Positions 507 to 40,837 of a stretch of 40,837 bases of DNA are shown one piece after another. The position numbers were made by a program, and so were the translations under genes. The stretch is from NCBI GenBank assembly GCA_964556795.1, contig CAZKWZ010000001.1, positions 50,912 to 91,748 of the forward strand, given 5' to 3'. Every line of letters begins with the position of its first letter. Positions within the stretch are counted from its first letter, which is position 1. A model generated the notes under the pieces. That model did no database searches and was not told where the DNA came from. It was given only the letters and a program-made list of their open reading frames with translations. The stretch comes from an uncultured Gammaproteobacteria bacterium (lineage in GTDB: Bacteria > Patescibacteriota > Microgenomatia > UBA12405).

Positions 507-3500
507 TTGAAATATTTGTCAAATAAAATATGTAAATGGTCTTTGTCTTCACACTTGTCATTGGGGGTAAAATCAAGAGATTTAATTTTTCCAAAAACCT
601 CGGTAATTTGAGATTTTAATCTGGTAACATCTTCGACTGTAAGAGGATAATTTTTACGAACAAAAAGATTTTTATTATTTTTTTCAATAAAGTCGATAGT
701 GCCGGAAACCACTTCATAAGGAAAAGCCTTGGCCTCAGAGCAAAGTAATTTATAAAAAACTAGCTGACGGAAATAATCCCCCTCGGGACCCAATTCCTGA
801 TATTTAGAGTCGGGTTTACCGGTTTTGTAGTCAACAACATTGACGGTATTCCCTGATAAAAATTCGATTTTATCAATTTTCCCGGTGAGTGGAATGTCGT
901 TCATCCGGACGTTATAAGATTTGAAATCATGCTCAGTAAAACAACGACCATTAAATTCACTTTTATAATGTTCATAATAGTCACTCAAAACTTGGTGGCC
1001 GTATTCCAATAAATCCTGATAATCATTTTTGGATAAATTCTCGCGACGTAAATTAAAATCAAAAATTGATAATAATTTAGAGAGAGGGATTAGGGTGTTA
1101 TCTTTTTTATAAATTTCAGTAAGATAGGCTAAAGCGCCATGGACACTGGTACCAAAGGAAAGAGATTTAGTTTTAGGGTAAGGGAGGCGAAGAATAGTTT
1201 TAAAGAAAAAACAGAGTGGACATTTGAGATAAGAATTGAGGTGAGTAATATTAAAACGATATTGAGTTTCTAAATAGTTTTGAAGATAGGACCTCAAGTT
1301 GGTTGATTGGAGAACGGGGATGGATGGGTGAAATAAGGAAAGTAAAGATTCTTTTTCAATACCAGTATCCGAAGATATTTTTTCAACAAGCTTCGGGTTT
1401 ATCTCACTGACAAATTGGGAAACTAATTGCTCCCGACGGGAATTATTAAAACGGGAATAAGAGATATAAATTTGTTTTTTGGCACGAGTGAGAGCCACAT
1501 AAAAAAGACGGCGGTCTTCCTCAAGAGACTCGGCGGCAGCTAGGTCGTATCGGAGAATCCCCAGGGGCAATTTTATGAGAGAGCGGCTGGAGGCAGAATC
1601 CCATTTACCGGATAAAACTTTAATCAAAAAGACATGCTCAAATTCCAAACCCTTGGCCTTGTGAACAGTCATCAGACGAAGACTATTGTCGACTTCGGAA
1701 ATTAGAGGCGAGGAGTTGAGAGGTAGATCGTTTTCGAGAAGAAGATTAATTTTTTGGGTCCAGGTAAATAAATCAATTTTTTCCAGTAGAAGGATTTGTT
1801 TGAGGTGTGAATAGAGAGTGTTTAACTGTTTTAGTAATGATATATTGCCTGTTTTTAGGATAAATGGTAGATATTTAAATTTTCTAATAATCAAATTAAA
1901 AAGTTCATCGGCTGGAAGACTAGCAGAAAGTTTTTTAATTTTAGCGACGCGAAGAGTAAAGATATTCAAATTTTTAGCAAAAACCTTAGAAAATTTTTTC
2001 TCAACTAGTTTTTTATCAAAAATCAGCTCGGAAAGAGCTCGTCTTTTTTTGGAAGCCAAATGAAAAAGTCGATAAAGCTCAAGAGAGTTGAGGTGAAGAA
2101 ATTTAAAAGATAAAACATGGAAAAGGAGGGTATCATCGTCAGGATTACTAAGGTATTTTAAAAGGGTTAAAAGTTGCTGGATTTCCGGGGTGTCCAAAAT
2201 ATTGACAGAATCAGAGCGAAGATATTTGAGGTTATTTTGCGCGAGGTATGGGAGTAGGTCATTAACATCATTGTTATTTCGATACAGGACAGCGATATTT
2301 TTTGGGAGAACTCCTGATTTGACTAAATCTTTAATTTTTCTAGCTACCCAGTAATTTTCTTCGATTACGGAATTGGCAGCAAATAAATTTATAGGGTCAG
2401 GATCGAAGGTACTAATAGACTTGAGGGATTTATCTATATTGCCGATATATTGGGTGATACGACTGAGGTTATGACTGATAACATCCTCGGAGGAATCGAG
2501 AATTAACTGATGGCTACGGTAGTTATTTTTTAAAACGATGAGTTTTAAATCTTTTTGATATTTTTGATAAAAGGTATAAACATTTTCCACACTGGCACCC
2601 TGAAAACGATAAATTGATTGGTCATCATCACCGACTACAAAAAGGTTGGGGTTAGCCTGATTTTTGGTTAATAGATTGAGAATTTCCATTTGAGAGGAAT
2701 TAGAATCCTGAAATTCATCAACCAAAAGATACTGATAGAGTTCTTGGTATTGGGAAAGCAATTCCGGATGAGTTTGGAAGGCTAAAATTACCCAGAGAAT
2801 CATGTCTTCATAGTCGTAAAGACCGCGTTTTTCAAGGGTTTTTTGATAGGATTGATAAATTAGAGATAAATCTCTAAGCTTGGGTAAATTGTTGTTTAGC
2901 GATTCAACAAAATCTTTGACATTTTTCTTTAATTCCGAGAGAGTAGAGGCGTCGGATTGATATAGAGTTTGAAAATATTTGAGGCGAATCTGATAAAGGG
3001 AATTAGTTTGGAGATTAGAAATTAGATTAGAGATTAGAAAGTTAATCTCGGTAGCAGCTTTGGGGGTGGCGCGGATTGACTGAAGTTTTTCAACAACCGG
3101 AGTAGCTAAAGTAACAAAATCAGCAGCGAATTTTATCAGCTCATCAAAACGGGCAGGAGAAATATTCTCTTTTTTTAAGGTAGATAAGGTGGAAATAATA
3201 TCTTTTTGATAAAAATAGGTGAAATTTAAGTTTTTTAACGGGCTACTTTGAGGGAGTTTATCAATTAAAGAACGGACAATTTCAATTTGAGTAATATCAT
3301 CGATGGCCTCAGATTCGACGGTAGATTTGAGAAAATATTCGGGATGATCTTTGATAACTGAGTTACAAAAGGCATGGAAAGTAGCAATACGGACATTGTA
3401 GGCGGAGGAACCAATGTACGAAAGTAGGCGCTCGCGCATATTAATAGCGGCATTTTCAGTGAAAGTAAGACACAAAATATTACTGGGATTAACCTGGGTT

Positions 3501-3652
3501 TCCTGTAGTATTCGTCCTATTCTTAGGGCTATAGTCTGAGTTTTACCGGTACCAGCACCAGCAATAACCATAACAGGTCCCTCAATAGTGTCGACAGCCT
3601 GACACTGCTGTGGGTTAAGCTTTTGATATTCGGAATCAAAGTTGGTAGTCAC
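503..3652 (-). CDS. UvrD/PcrA-family SF1 helicase fused to a C-terminal RecB/AddA-type PD-(D/E)XK nuclease domain
   Basis: 1049 aa, GTG start (cac at 3650..3652). Helicase motifs: Walker A GAGTGKT, motif II VDEFQDS, NYRS, VHKAKGLEFEHVF, YVALTRAK. C-terminal nuclease signature: GKIDKIE ... VVDYKTGK ... RQLVFYKLL. Confidence 0.85.
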   Translation of the reverse strand: MTTNFDSEYQKLNPQQCQAVDTIEGPVMVIAGAGTGKTQTIALRIGRILQETQVNPSNILCLTFTENAAINMRERLLSYIGSSAYNVRIATFHAFCNSVIKDHPEYFLKSTVESEAIDDITQIEIVRSLIDKLPQSSPLKNLNFTYFYQKDIISTLSTLKKENISPARFDELIKFAADFVTLATPVVEKLQSIRATPKAATEINFLISNLISNLQTNSLYQIRLKYFQTLYQSDASTLSELKKNVKDFVESLNNNLPKLRDLSLIYQSYQKTLEKRGLYDYEDMILWVILAFQTHPELLSQYQELYQYLLVDEFQDSNSSQMEILNLLTKNQANPNLFVVGDDDQSIYRFQGASVENVYTFYQKYQKDLKLIVLKNNYRSHQLILDSSEDVISHNLSRITQYIGNIDKSLKSISTFDPDPINLFAANSVIEENYWVARKIKDLVKSGVLPKNIAVLYRNNNDVNDLLPYLAQNNLKYLRSDSVNILDTPEIQQLLTLLKYLSNPDDDTLLFHVLSFKFLHLNSLELYRLFHLASKKRRALSELIFDKKLVEKKFSKVFAKNLNIFTLRVAKIKKLSASLPADELFNLIIRKFKYLPFILKTGNISLLKQLNTLYSHLKQILLLEKIDLFTWTQKINLLLENDLPLNSSPLISEVDNSLRLMTVHKAKGLEFEHVFLIKVLSGKWDSASSRSLIKLPLGILRYDLAAAESLEEDRRLFYVALTRAKKQIYISYSRFNNSRREQLVSQFVSEINPKLVEKISSDTGIEKESLLSLFHPSIPVLQSTNLRSYLQNYLETQYRFNITHLNSYLKCPLCFFFKTILRLPYPKTKSLSFGTSVHGALAYLTEIYKKDNTLIPLSKLLSIFDFNLRRENLSKNDYQDLLEYGHQVLSDYYEHYKSEFNGRCFTEHDFKSYNVRMNDIPLTGKIDKIEFLSGNTVNVVDYKTGKPDSKYQELGPEGDYFRQLVFYKLLCSEAKAFPYEVVSGTIDFIEKNNKNLFVRKNYPLTVEDVTRLKSQITEVFGKIKSLDFTPNDKCEDKDHLHILFDKYFK

Positions 3653-3689
3653 TACCCTATTTTAGCTGAGAAGAGACTATTTTTTCGGT

Positions 3690-3857
3690 TTAAATACCAG
3701 TGTTTTGTCTGAGATATTTGATACAGACAATGGCAGCCATCATAACAATGAAAAACATGCAGAGAGTGAAACCAGACATTCCGGTTTGACTTTGAGAACT
3801 TTTACTAACTGTTCTTCTAGTAGCAGTTTTTTTGGGGGCAGTTTTTTTAGATTTCAT
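3690..3857 (-). CDS. small basic tail-anchored membrane protein (55 aa), hypothetical
   Basis: Own translation of the gap between hydrolase and helicase genes: MKSKKTAPKKTATRRTVSKSSQSQTGMSGFTLCMFFIVMMAAIVCIKYLRQNTGI, ATG at 3857..3855, TAA at 3692..3690. Lys/Arg/Ser-rich N-terminus plus one TM helix. Below the 60-aa cutoff of the ORF track. Confidence 0.35.
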   Translation of the reverse strand: MKSKKTAPKKTATRRTVSKSSQSQTGMSGFTLCMFFIVMMAAIVCIKYLRQNTGI

Positions 3858-38571: not shown

Positions 38572-39573
38572 ATGAATCAAAATAAAAAAAGAATACTGAC
38601 CGGCGACAGACCAACCGGACCATTACATTTGGGACATTATGTCGGCACTCTAAAAAACAGAGTGGCTTTGCAGGATGAATATGACTGCTTTTTTATTATG
38701 GCCGATTTACATACTTTAACAACAGCCATGAATAAGGATAAAACCTCGACTATCAACCAACGGGTTAAAGGCTTAGTTTTAGATTATCTATCGGTGGGAA
38801 TTAACCCAGATAAATGCACCATTTATCAACAATCTAGAGTTCCTGAGGTGGCTTATTTATCATTAATCTTTTCAAATTTAGTGACAGTGCCTAGAGCCCA
38901 AAGAGTACCAACATTAAAAGACGTAATGCATGATTTAAAAATTGAACAACCGTCACTGGGACTATTAAACTATCCGGTTTTACAAGCAGCGGATATTTTA
39001 ATGGTAAAAGCCGATTTAGTCCCAGTAGGGAGAGATCAGGAAAGTCATGTAGAAGTGACACGAGAAGTAGCCCGGGATTTTAATAAAAACTTTGGAGAAA
39101 TTTTTCCAGAACCAAAGGCGTTAATTGGTGATGTTGGAACCCTGGTGGGAACTGACGGACAAGCCAAAATGAGTAAAAGTATCGGAAATTGTATCTATCT
39201 TTCCGATGATGAGGAAACGGTGAATAAAAAAGTGAAAACAATGTATACTGATCCGACAAGAATTAGACCGACAGATCCGGGACATGTAGAGGGAAATCCG
39301 GTGTTTATATATCATGACGCTTTTAATGAAAACAAAGAAGAAGTAGCCGATCTTAAGGATAGATATGTAAAAGGTCAGGTTGGTGACGTGGAGGTTAAAA
39401 CCAAATTGGCGCAGGCAATTAATAAGTTTTTAACACCGATTAGAGATAGAAGAGCCAACTTTGAAGGCAATGATGAATTAATCAAGCAGATTATCGAAGA
39501 AGGTAGCAAAAAAGCTCAGATTGAAGCTCAAAAAACTCTAAATGAGGTATTGGTGGCCATGGGAGTAAGATAA
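38572..39573 (+). CDS. trpS: tryptophanyl-tRNA synthetase
   Basis: TGDRPTGPLHLGHY (HIGH-type), AKMSKS (KMSKS), 333 aa class Ic layout. Confidence 0.93.
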   Translation: MNQNKKRILTGDRPTGPLHLGHYVGTLKNRVALQDEYDCFFIMADLHTLTTAMNKDKTSTINQRVKGLVLDYLSVGINPDKCTIYQQSRVPEVAYLSLIFSNLVTVPRAQRVPTLKDVMHDLKIEQPSLGLLNYPVLQAADILMVKADLVPVGRDQESHVEVTREVARDFNKNFGEIFPEPKALIGDVGTLVGTDGQAKMSKSIGNCIYLSDDEETVNKKVKTMYTDPTRIRPTDPGHVEGNPVFIYHDAFNENKEEVADLKDRYVKGQVGDVEVKTKLAQAINKFLTPIRDRRANFEGNDELIKQIIEEGSKKAQIEAQKTLNEVLVAMGVR

Positions 39574-39575
39574 TA

Positions 39576-40061
39576 ATGACTACCTATTATATTTTTCGTC
39601 ACGGGCAGACAAAGTATTCAAAATATCGTCTCCCCTATCCAAAGGATAATCGTCTGGTAGAAATATTACCCGAAGGGAAGGTGGCAATTGAAAGATTGGG
39701 AAAATATTTAAAAGATATAAAATCTCTGAAAAATTTTTCATCGGAATACTATCGATGCCGGGAGACAGTAAAAATTATTGGAAAAATCTCCGGTTTAAAA
39801 TTTAAAAAGGATAAAAGATTAAACGAAAAATCTGGGGAAAACTTTAGTGATTTTAAAACAAGAGTAAAAGACTTTGTAGAAGAAATTGAAAAAAAGGAAT
39901 ATAAGACCGTAATGATTTGCACCCATGGTGCAGTTATCGCCGCTATAAAAAAGATGCTTTTAAAGAAGAACCTAAGAATAACCGACCTACTTTTTTATCC
40001 CAAAACAGGAGTGTTATTGATAGTAAAGGGAAAGGAAGTTGAAAAAATAGATTTTAATTAG
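39576..40061 (+). CDS. histidine phosphatase superfamily (phosphoglycerate-mutase-like) protein
   Basis: RHG catalytic motif at the N-terminus (YIFRHGQT); second His in ICTHGAVI. Confidence 0.8.
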   Translation: MTTYYIFRHGQTKYSKYRLPYPKDNRLVEILPEGKVAIERLGKYLKDIKSLKNFSSEYYRCRETVKIIGKISGLKFKKDKRLNEKSGENFSDFKTRVKDFVEEIEKKEYKTVMICTHGAVIAAIKKMLLKKNLRITDLLFYPKTGVLLIVKGKEVEKIDFN

Positions 40062-40063
40062 CC

Positions 40064-40369
40064 TTAAAATGGGACTTTTTCGAGATTGACATAGGTGCCA
40101 ATGGCGTTTCCAAGAGCGTAAGCAATTAAAACCGGAATGTTGCCGTGGAGATTATTGGCAATTTGGTAAATAACGTAGATAGCAAGAAAATTCTCAAAAA
40201 ACACTAAGAGGGCCGCAGCGCGTGATCGGCCTTTTGAAATCCAATAGGTTCTTTGAGTGGCCAAAAACATTTCGACGAAGCCGACGGCAAAGTACCCCAA
40301 AATTTGACCTATTAATTGCAGAGACATATTTGGTAAAGTGAATTTTAAGAAAAGAACTGAGAGGCTCAA
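40064..40369 (-). CDS. small membrane protein, DUF5698/UPF0316 N-terminal-domain-like
   Basis: VEMFLATQRTYWISKGRSRAAALLVFFENFLAIYVIYQI resembles the (V/L)D.SLGT.R......G....A....F.E motif. The track start is TTG (40369); an in-frame ATG at 40327 (MSLQLIG...) is an alternative. Confidence 0.55.
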   Translation of the reverse strand: MSLSVLFLKFTLPNMSLQLIGQILGYFAVGFVEMFLATQRTYWISKGRSRAAALLVFFENFLAIYVIYQIANNLHGNIPVLIAYALGNAIGTYVNLEKVPF

Positions 40370-40460
40370 CGCCTCCAGGTTCGGTTTTTTCTTGGGTCAT
40401 ATGGTTCTCTAAATAAGAACAAGTAATTTTACACTAAATATAGGTGATATTCAATATTAG

Positions 40461-40522
40461 TAGGCATGCATGGACTCGAACCATGGACCCCTCCGACGTA
40501 CGTCGGAGTGCTCTAACCAATT
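40461..40522 (-). pseudogene. tRNA 3' fragment (D-loop to discriminator) with non-canonical anticodon arm
   Basis: The minus strand reads AATTGGTTAGAGCA-CTCCGACGTACGTCGGAG-GGGTC-CATGG-TTCGAGT-CCATG-CATGCCT-A. No matching 5' acceptor or D-stem strand lies upstream (the GIY-YIG ORF is there). The anticodon arm is an 18-nt perfect palindrome (5-bp stem with an 8-nt loop, or 7-bp with a 4-nt loop). Confidence 0.6.
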
Positions 40523-40794
40523 AATTTACAAAAATTATCGGCAATAATTCTTTCGATTATTGTGCGTGATTTTAATTTTTTGAGTTTACATTCAATTCTT
40601 CTAGCAGTTGGTAAATCAAAATATTCTTGTTTAAAAACCAATTTCCATGGAATTCCGTTTCTGGTTGATTTTACAAAACCAGAATTGTGTTGTGTTTCCA
40701 AGCGTCTTTCTGGATTATCTGAGCTACCAATGTAATATTTGTCTGTTTTACTGCTTTTTAGAATATAAATAAAACCTTTCAAGTAGGCATGCAT
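40513..40794 (-). CDS. stand-alone GIY-YIG nuclease-domain protein (about 90 aa, YhbQ/UPF0213-like)
   Basis: GFIYILKS...KYYIGSSDNPERRLETQHNSG...ARRIECKLKKL (GIY, YIG, Arg and Glu elements). The ATG (40794) lies inside the acceptor stem of the upstream tRNA. An in-frame TTG at 40782 starts 1 nt after that tRNA. The stop TAG is formed by the D-loop of the downstream tRNA fragment. Confidence 0.8.
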   Translation of the reverse strand: MHAYLKGFIYILKSSKTDKYYIGSSDNPERRLETQHNSGFVKSTRNGIPWKLVFKQEYFDLPTARRIECKLKKLKSRTIIERIIADNFCKLIG

Positions 40795-40837
40795 GGACTC
40801 GAACCATGGACCCTCGACTTATAAGATCGATGCTCTA
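40784..40837 (-). tRNA. tRNA-Ile (anticodon UAU), 3' two-thirds; 5' part lies beyond the right edge
   Basis: The minus strand reads TAGAGCA-TCGAT-CTTATAA-GTCGA-GGGTC-CATGG-TTCGAGT-CCATG-CATGCCT-A. Canonical 7-nt anticodon loop with U33 and A37, anticodon TAT, discriminator A73. Confidence 0.7.

Follow-up and report, generated by a model that had tools for sequence, protein, structure and literature searches.

The available part of the account of SegB (PMC13096335) describes a free-standing GIY-YIG homing endonuclease of phages T4 and T6 whose gene lies in a tRNA gene cluster, which is tRNA-associated across phages and which drives homologous-recombination-dependent segmental amplification via microhomology between a tRNA 5' region and the 3' end of segB. 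Stand-alone UPF0213/Slx1-like proteins have been described as the minimal GIY-YIG form (PMC1564403; PMC7017083), and eukaryotic Slx1 requires Slx4 and carries a zinc-finger domain (PMC7017083). In the literature found, no function, mobility, tRNA linkage or associated hairpin is reported for the stand-alone proteins. The present analysis concerns a small GIY-YIG open reading frame (ORF) at one end of a 40,837-nt stretch of Patescibacteriota DNA (the window; GenBank assembly GCA_964556795.1, contig CAZKWZ010000001.1, positions 50,912 to 91,748). The ORF is probably part of a selfish cassette of the homing-nuclease type, enclosed by a split tRNA copy, within a tRNA-Met/tRNA-Met/tRNA-Ile operon.

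The window contains exactly two copies of the 32-nt sequence AGTAGGCATGCATGGACTCGAACCATGGACCC, with 291 nt between them (Table 1). No further copy is present in the window even when up to 3 mismatches are allowed, and none of 100 shuffles gave a match; the repeat is real, the chance expectation being none. A sequence-only reading of the window had interpreted it as the 3' end of a minus-strand tRNA, which holds: on that strand it comprises variable-loop nt 44-48 (the last 5 nt), the T arm CATGG-TTCGAGT-CCATG, the 3' acceptor strand CATGCCT, the discriminator A and CT. Its source is tRNA-Ile(UAU). The right copy scores 38.4 bits with the Rfam tRNA model (gathering score 29), is flagged as 5'-truncated at the window end and has the anticodon UAU; the gene is found at its full 75 nt in the relatives L184, L007, L171 and L172 (such labels denote the loci of retrieved sequences). 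Around the left copy no tRNA was called by ARAGORN, and the Rfam score of 16.9 bits is below the threshold. On folding, its acceptor stem does not form and its arm consists of a 7-bp stem with a 4-nt loop. With neither a complete cloverleaf nor a 7-nt anticodon loop, the left copy is not a tRNA, and the possibility that it would prove complete once correctly folded is not borne out. Below, T denotes the adjacent real tRNA, X a pseudo-tRNA, and X' a pseudo-tRNA downstream of the ORF in the window-type layout.

The space between the repeats had been given as 261 nt filled completely by the ORF. This needs correction, as 18 of the 291 nt form a perfect palindrome, CTCCGACGTACGTCGGAG, where the downstream pseudo-tRNA should have its anticodon arm. 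It is predicted to fold into a 7-bp stem closing a GUAC loop, and is the sole occurrence of a CCGA/TCGG-type hairpin motif in the window. X' consists of a D-arm remnant, the palindrome instead of an anticodon arm, and a duplicate of tRNA-Ile positions 44-76. Its homology to the tRNA breaks at 26/27 and 43/44, where the anticodon stem has its base. Both tRNA-like units share tgctcta (40509-40515 and 40831-40837), as had been noted. The final 22 nt of the ORF resemble tRNA positions 5-26 at 16/22 sites by hand count, a hint only, since most of this is the D-arm remnant and the remainder is weak.

Table 1. Position of the cassette components in the window.
Feature	Position	Strand	Basis
tRNA-Ile(UAU) gene, 3' 54 nt from the D-loop on; 5' part past the window end	40784..40837	-	Rfam 38.4 bits; full orthologues
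Right copy of the 32-nt direct repeat: tRNA positions 44-76 + CT	40782..40813		exact-match search
Stand-alone GIY-YIG ORF (putative nuclease); 93 aa (ATG 40794) or 89 aa (TTG 40782)	40513..40794	-	PF01541
D-arm remnant GGTTAGAGCA of pseudo-tRNA X', overlapping the ORF end	40509..40518	-	Rfam, alignment
18-nt perfect palindrome CTCCGACGTACGTCGGAG, family hairpin NN-CCGA-Y..R-TCGG-NN	40491..40508		motif scan, fold
Left copy of the 32-nt repeat: X' variable loop, T arm, 3' acceptor strand, discriminator + CT	40459..40490		exact-match search, alignment
323-nt segment missing from empty-site relatives; equally 40491-40813 (ends ambiguous within the repeat)	40459..40781	-	filled/empty alignment

The ORF product belongs to the GIY-YIG superfamily (Pfam PF01541, E 2e-12), with a single domain over residues 6-77. 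Seven residues (Y10, Y21, G23, R31, H36, E68, K72) are 98-100% conserved among 160 ORFs of the family, and an AlphaFold2 model (predicted local distance difference test score 87) has the secondary elements in the order expected for the beta-beta-alpha-alpha-beta-alpha GIY-YIG fold. In a profile search of solved structures the best matches were BH0048 (1zg2, E 1.8e-9) and EF2693 (1ywl, E 2.9e-8), followed by SLX1 (E 5.7e-6), with I-TevI far weaker (E 0.046). Foldseek with the model ranked 1zg2 and Slx1 at the top, in agreement with the order of the sequence profiles. The protein is therefore placed in the stand-alone UPF0213/Slx1-like cluster and not in the I-TevI/UvrC branch. The TAG stop codon (40515-40513) lies inside GGTTAGAGC, the D-loop of the pseudo-tRNA, as had been proposed. 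The ATG at 40794 does lie in the acceptor stem of the tRNA, but it may not be the true start, because, of the six closest homologues aligned, four (89 aa) begin at the position of TTG 40782, 2 nt past the tRNA. Among the window ORF and those of L184, L007 and L001 the ratio of nonsynonymous to synonymous divergence (dN/dS) is 0.06-0.14 at a dS of 0.8-1.6, which points to strong purifying selection on the protein, including its catalytic residues.

Exact look-ups of the product with either start gave no match. Phage origin was considered and rejected: tblastn against 50,697 phage records found nothing, every match among the PHROGs phage families had an E-value of 7e-4 or weaker, and the two matches in IMG/VR were weak and without a tRNA nearby. 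A role in an anti-phage defence system was likewise rejected, the only PADLOC match being 'HEase' (E 0.0047, not significant).

Two collection scans yielded 159 further loci, from Patescibacteria (Candidate Phyla Radiation, CPR), Bacteroidota, Ignavibacteria, other metagenome-assembled genomes and three cultured Cyclobacteriaceae. The survey counts refer to 167 related loci, or 168 non-redundant ORF places. Loci were picked by the presence of the ORF. Hairpins were detected with one motif and pseudo-tRNAs through exact matches of 12 nt or more, which makes the counts minimum values. All 159 tRNAs within 150 nt of a family ORF are on the same strand and 0 on the opposite one. Where a tRNA lies downstream (86 ORFs), the stop codon is a TAG inside it in 57, formed by U8-A9-G10 in 42 of them. 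The two flanks of the ORF share a match of at least 12 nt in 111/161 loci against 8/161 mismatched-pair controls, and these flanking repeats are pieces of T. GIY-YIG genes at unrelated non-tRNA sites without repeats would have spoken against an association with tRNA genes; the opposite was found, with tRNA genes and flanking repeats in more than 100 loci.

X-ORF-T is the most frequent layout (about 66 places); in it X consists of T positions 1 to ~26, a hairpin and T positions 44 to ~56. The T-ORF-X layout of the window is in the minority (about 15 places). Copies of the two halves of T have a clear polarity: 5' halves precede the (ORF,T) block in 70 loci and follow it in 3, 3' halves follow it in 35 and precede it in 14, and both halves are found in 23. 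The ORF and an intact tRNA are therefore nested inside a split tRNA copy, whose upstream 5' half and downstream 3' half are each accompanied by a hairpin. Comparing X with the 5' half of the tRNA without gaps gave too much noise because of D-loop indels; only about a third are near-identical. The breaks in homology at 26/27 and 43/44 are found family-wide. Some genomes hold several family copies, and tandem arrays occur in L083 (seven units of 336 nt), L008 (two units) and L062 (three).

Several details of the survey are recorded as observations in their own right. The L083 array (1409-3830), on a Bacteroidetes chromosome, has its seven units of ORF, pseudo-tRNA and terminator hairpin after tRNA-Val(TAC), and in place of the CCGA hairpin the arm of its pseudo-tRNA carries a UAU anticodon in a 7-nt loop. 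The upstream pseudo-tRNA frequently breaks off directly behind the T-loop sequence GGTTCRA, at the point where the ORF leader starts; this junction recurs in L008, L011, L014, L015, L026, L031, L103, L119 and L129. The cultured Bacteroidota carriers (L038, L071, L075) are Algoriphagus marincola DSM 16067, Belliella aquatica CGMCC 1.12479 and Fontibacter flavus CCM 7650.

In Shapirobacteria, ORF homologues 78-85% identical to that of the window are found in the same neighbourhood, flanked on one side by His-phosphatase or DUF5698, tryptophanyl-tRNA synthetase (TrpRS) and ribosomal protein L25, and on the other by two tRNA-Met genes, a tyrosine recombinase and DUF87. The cassette sits in a tRNA-Met/tRNA-Met/tRNA-Ile operon. 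Four filled lineages are known: the window, L184 and L001 (both X, tRNA-Ile(TAT), ORF, X') and L007 (two X copies, tRNA-Ile(TAT), ORF, X'). The upstream X of the filled relatives is a full-length tRNA-like gene with the same palindrome, which ARAGORN labels 'tRNA-???'. A search of relatives for empty sites, as the sequence-only reading had suggested, recovered seven syntenic loci that read tRNA-Met, 8-9 nt, tRNA-Ile(TAT) and then flank; none of the seven contains the ORF, X, the palindrome or the repeat. Their TrpRS proteins are 85-91% identical to that of the window and represent at least four alleles, i.e. at least four close relatives. The 323-nt segment is therefore an insertion/deletion polymorphism with ends ambiguous within the repeat, and, as expected of a homing gene, its presence or absence varies between conserved genes at the same site. 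The proposal of a mobile, tRNA-targeting cassette gains from this polymorphism and from the tie of the whole family to tRNAs; its D-loop breakpoint and its displaced 3' part do not stand, for reasons given below.

The tyrosine recombinase gene, about 0.5-1 kb beyond the tRNA cluster in relatives, raises an alternative, an att-type duplication left by a decayed integrase-borne island at the tRNA 3' end; an assembly artefact was considered together with it, as short-read contigs break at the repeat. Both deserve next to no credence. The recombinase is present in empty and filled loci alike and is therefore not part of the polymorphism; it lies outside the repeats, and a recombinase is near only 1/157 other family loci, on which grounds linkage of the cassette to an integrase was rejected. 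No site-specific recombinase, the mark of an integrase-type island, was found within or linked to the repeats, and many independent assemblies reproduce the architecture. An Rfam E-value scan of 39900-40837 for an intron core gave only tRNA matches and chance-level ones. The earlier statement that neither an integrase nor a group I intron is present is thus upheld.

The sequence-only reading had proposed that a tRNA 3' portion together with the GIY-YIG gene inserted into a resident tRNA at the D-loop, the downstream fragment being the displaced original 3' part. In its favour are the directly repeated tRNA 3' end, the D-arm strand common to both units, the existence of empty sites and the outer fragment of L001, which is nearer to the empty-site tRNA than the central tRNA is. 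The displaced part should however bear the resident anticodon arm, CCGATCTTATAAGTCGG. It instead bears the family palindrome, which is absent at 7/7 empty sites and conserved at a dS of about 1 (0.8-1.6). Full-length upstream X copies are also present in filled loci, and instead of a single D-loop breakpoint the homology breaks twice, at the base of the anticodon stem, across the family. Insertion at the D-loop is accordingly rated improbable.

The tRNA-Ile genes themselves differ between filled and empty sites. The seven empty-site genes are identical save one D-loop base (C/T, L171). Every filled lineage has private changes, and within each genome the states of positions 26, 44-45 and the T-loop are common to T and X': A26, GG44-45 and TTCGAGT in the window; A26, GG44-45 and TCCGAGT (= U55C) in L184; G26, AA44-45 and TTCAAGT in L007. 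These concerted states would explain the exactness of the window repeat by gene conversion or recent regeneration. L001 is an exception. Its outer halves, positions 1-26 of the upstream X and 49-76 of X', are of the empty-site type, with matching acceptor strands (GGGCATG/CATGCCT), and its central tRNA has the acceptor GGGTGCA/TGCACCT. The private changes fit co-conversion with the nuclease gene and equally conversion from pseudo-copies. In L184 an apparently functional tRNA-Ile (1646-1720) carries U55C, which is also found in the adjacent pseudo-tRNA (2014-2044), and the shared states suggest that pseudo-copies feed mutations into the functional tRNA by gene conversion. As a separate observation, the anticodon stem of the window tRNA-Ile is TCGAT/GTCGA and that of all empty sites and other filled loci CCGAT/GTCGG, so that the window copy alone has lost the CCGA/TCGG motif from the real tRNA-Ile.

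The hairpin accompanies most family loci. Its form is NN-CCGA-Y...R-TCGG-NN in a tRNA-like context (GAGC-R before, AGGTC after, with G26.A44 frequent), and 128/167 loci have it no more than 400 nt from the ORF, with 241 matches against about 16 expected and distant flanks at chance level. The loop has the canonical 7 nt in about 10% of cases and 8 nt in half, and no relation between the loop and the anticodon of the partner tRNA was seen when looked for. The two outer stem pairs covary: 135/143 and 122/143 are Watson-Crick pairs, of 3-4 pair types, compared with 60 and 43 in shuffles. In the window, L184, L007 and L001 the palindrome is identical at 18/18 positions although synonymous sites are close to saturated (dS 0.8-1.6), which argues that it is under selection and is not a decaying relic.

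Across the family, ORFs that are 70-77% identical adjoin tRNAs of different identity (Lys/Ala, Met/Val, Gly/Ala). The hairpin class follows the relatedness of the ORFs across these partner switches, being shared by 27% of pairs at 65-75% ORF identity and by 1% below 45%. Hairpin and ORF thus belong to the element itself, whereas the tRNA backbone of X is local and matches the adjacent tRNA. Two further observations concern hairpins elsewhere. At L001 3305-3330 the downstream pseudo-tRNA has its T-loop interrupted by a 25-nt CCGA..TCGG hairpin (GTCCGATCGTTAGCATCGGAC), which shows that the hairpin can also stand alone. In a subfamily (L135, L147, L161, L024, L153, L084) two or three tandem or nested CCGAC..GTCGG hairpins lie up to 100 nt upstream of the ORF (for example CTCCGAC[CTCCGATATTCAAATCGGAG]CGTCGGAG); these may be nested insertions or a larger structured element.

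A hairpin next to a conserved gene could also be read as a host device, the ORF being a tRNA-related or recombination housekeeping factor and the hairpin a cis-regulatory mRNA mimic for autoregulation or processing. The ORF is strictly co-oriented with the tRNA genes and overlaps them, its protein appears to be under purifying selection, and in X-ORF-T loci the 3' strand of the hairpin and a Shine-Dalgarno-like GGAGG/GAAGG stand 8-15 nt before the ATG. A housekeeping role is nevertheless very improbable: the ORF is missing from the closest relatives, its copy number, position and partner tRNA all vary, and in the window class the hairpin is downstream of the ORF. Stem mismatches also lack the wobble bias expected of RNA, G.T (11) and A.C (13) being equally rare, which argues weakly for constraint at the level of DNA rather than RNA.

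A further possibility is that the cassette is a passive passenger, arising by local tandem duplication of a tRNA gene and spread by vertical descent and allelic recombination, with the nuclease having no role in propagation. The ORF may then be domesticated or neutral, and the hairpin may persist by interrupting the repeats and so slowing their deletion. Gene conversion alone accounts for the co-variation of tRNA and X, the flanking repeats permit scarless loss, and the divergence of the ORF resembles that of neighbouring genes. This is unlikely, though it carries some weight. It sits poorly with the strong purifying selection indicated for the catalytic residues, with repeated switches of partner tRNA at 70-77% ORF identity during which the hairpin was retained, and with the several copies and tandem arrays of some genomes; the hairpin sequence itself is also conserved beyond what mere heterology would need.

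The homing-type cassette favoured here could work as follows. The ORF starts 0-2 nt past tRNA-Ile and is followed by X'; it would have no promoter of its own and would be read from the transcript of the tRNA operon. In L007, promoter-like sites upstream of the ORF are found only ahead of tRNA genes, with one further weak match inside the ORF. The nuclease would break or nick a tRNA-gene or palindrome structure, and host homologous recombination, using the tRNA-derived halves as homology arms, would copy the cassette into a cassette-less allele. The left end of the broken resident tRNA would pair with the upstream half (1-26) and its right end with the downstream half (44-76), and the block copied would comprise a hairpin, the ORF and tRNA in either order, and a hairpin. 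The resident tRNA would be left split at the anticodon arm, with an intact tRNA supplied by the cassette. The same repeats would drive gene conversion between tRNA and X, tandem amplification and scarless loss. Break-repair copying of this kind would reproduce the observed architecture and the L001 pattern. One candidate cut site is the palindrome, as a duplex or a cruciform, which would suit an Slx1-like enzyme; another is a conserved feature of the tRNA gene, to judge from the breaks at GGTTCRA and the T-loop hairpin of L001.

A number of points weigh against this explanation. Nuclease activity and target are predicted from conserved residues and the modelled fold. Any target inside the tRNA gene would persist in the intact tRNA of the filled locus, which leaves self-cleavage unexplained. 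The ORF product, a single domain of about 90 aa, lacks the separate DNA-binding domain, reading a long target, of proven homing endonucleases. In this clade the ORF (78-85% identity) is about as diverged as the neighbouring genes (83-93%), gain and loss are indistinguishable, and ordinary allelic recombination could explain the patchy distribution. Within the family, 24/168 ORFs are without a tRNA or hairpin within 150 nt and about 40 have a tRNA and no recognisable hairpin. Finally, the window ends inside tRNA-Ile, so that the upstream half of the window copy lies outside it.

Other observations were made in the same neighbourhood. Between syntenic Shapirobacteria loci TrpRS (window 38572-39573; L007 3781-4788; L183 3824-4759) is only 53% identical, the integrase and DUF5698 in those loci are 83-93% identical, and L183 and L184 have an identical cassette region with TrpRS of two types, as though the synthetase had undergone xenologous replacement. 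Horizontal transfer of the cassette, suggested by the contrast of TrpRS (53%) with the GIY-YIG protein (81%), was rejected because the integrase, DUF5698 and ribosomal protein L25 are 68-93% identical, which makes TrpRS the outlier. Another small GIY-YIG gene, whose 88-aa product has 34-40% identity to that of the window ORF, lies at L001 2136-2510, and also in L002-L004 and L088, directly after the 3' end of an initiator-like tRNA-Met and before the terminator of that tRNA. L001 has the complete gene, L007 a 72-nt remnant (2540-2611) and L171, L172 and L184 no trace of it, an independent presence/absence series in the same operon. Logan short-read contigs with the window's own TrpRS (L167, L168) stop inside the left 32-nt repeat (window ~40488), showing that the cassette breaks k-mer or short-read assemblies.

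Stand-alone UPF0213/Slx1-like GIY-YIG proteins are common in bacteria, and a large subgroup of them now shows a clear genomic behaviour. In CPR bacteria, whose genomes are very small, the cassettes occupy essential tRNA operons. They seem to increase the turnover of tRNA sequences, because the filled tRNA-Ile genes have private changes (including U55C) and the empty-site ones are essentially invariant. If the family were a new class of mobile element, a reading taken up below, it would be a driver of tRNA gene replacement, duplication and accelerated sequence change in CPR, Bacteroidota and other phyla. If the palindrome is the site of the nuclease, the enzyme would combine a very small size with sequence or structure specificity and a defined target. 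Algoriphagus, Belliella and Fontibacter provide cultured hosts. For annotation the pseudo-tRNAs are a source of confusion, as the 'tRNA-???' label of ARAGORN illustrates.

Among known systems, SegB shows the nearest described behaviour. It too is encoded by a GIY-YIG gene between tRNA genes, and its microhomology parallels the family ORF ends that overlap tRNA 5' ends and the tandem arrays. SegB differs in being a phage gene of the I-TevI-like branch, which the window ORF matches only weakly, and the available part of its description mentions neither a pseudo-tRNA with a conserved palindrome nor a split-tRNA bracket. It is also larger than the window ORF and has a DNA-binding part. The stand-alone UPF0213/Slx1-like proteins are the best matches in sequence and fold, and have the same single-domain build of about 90-100 aa. 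I-TevI and the group I introns in bacterial tRNA genes share the nuclease superfamily and the tRNA-gene habitat, but no intron RNA was detected here and the ORF lies between tRNA-like units, not in an intron.

Integrase-borne prophages and islands likewise keep an intact tRNA and mark the far end of the insert with a direct repeat of its 3' end. Unlike them, the window cassette measures 0.3 kb and has no linked recombinase, its duplicated piece has a foreign anticodon arm, and 5' halves are duplicated too. In IS200/IS605, REP/RAYT and integron attC systems a conserved, covarying hairpin or palindrome also accompanies an enzyme gene, and hairpins also occur alone, nested or in tandem; the cassette hairpin differs in sitting in a tRNA scaffold. 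Those systems use HUH enzymes or tyrosine recombinases with covalent intermediates, which GIY-YIG nucleases are not known to form.

No description of tRNA-linked UPF0213 genes, pseudo-tRNAs or cassettes of this kind was found in the open-access full-text literature. It is a real possibility, though less likely than not, that they represent a new class of mobile element, in which a minimal Slx1-like GIY-YIG nuclease is combined with a palindromic pseudo-anticodon arm as its cis site and with a tRNA gene of its own, and which invades tRNA genes of any identity by splitting the resident at the anticodon-stem base, the host then depending on the cassette tRNA. The family is best regarded as a variant of the free-standing selfish nuclease genes, with a substantial chance that its design of split tRNA, own tRNA and palindrome forms the new class.

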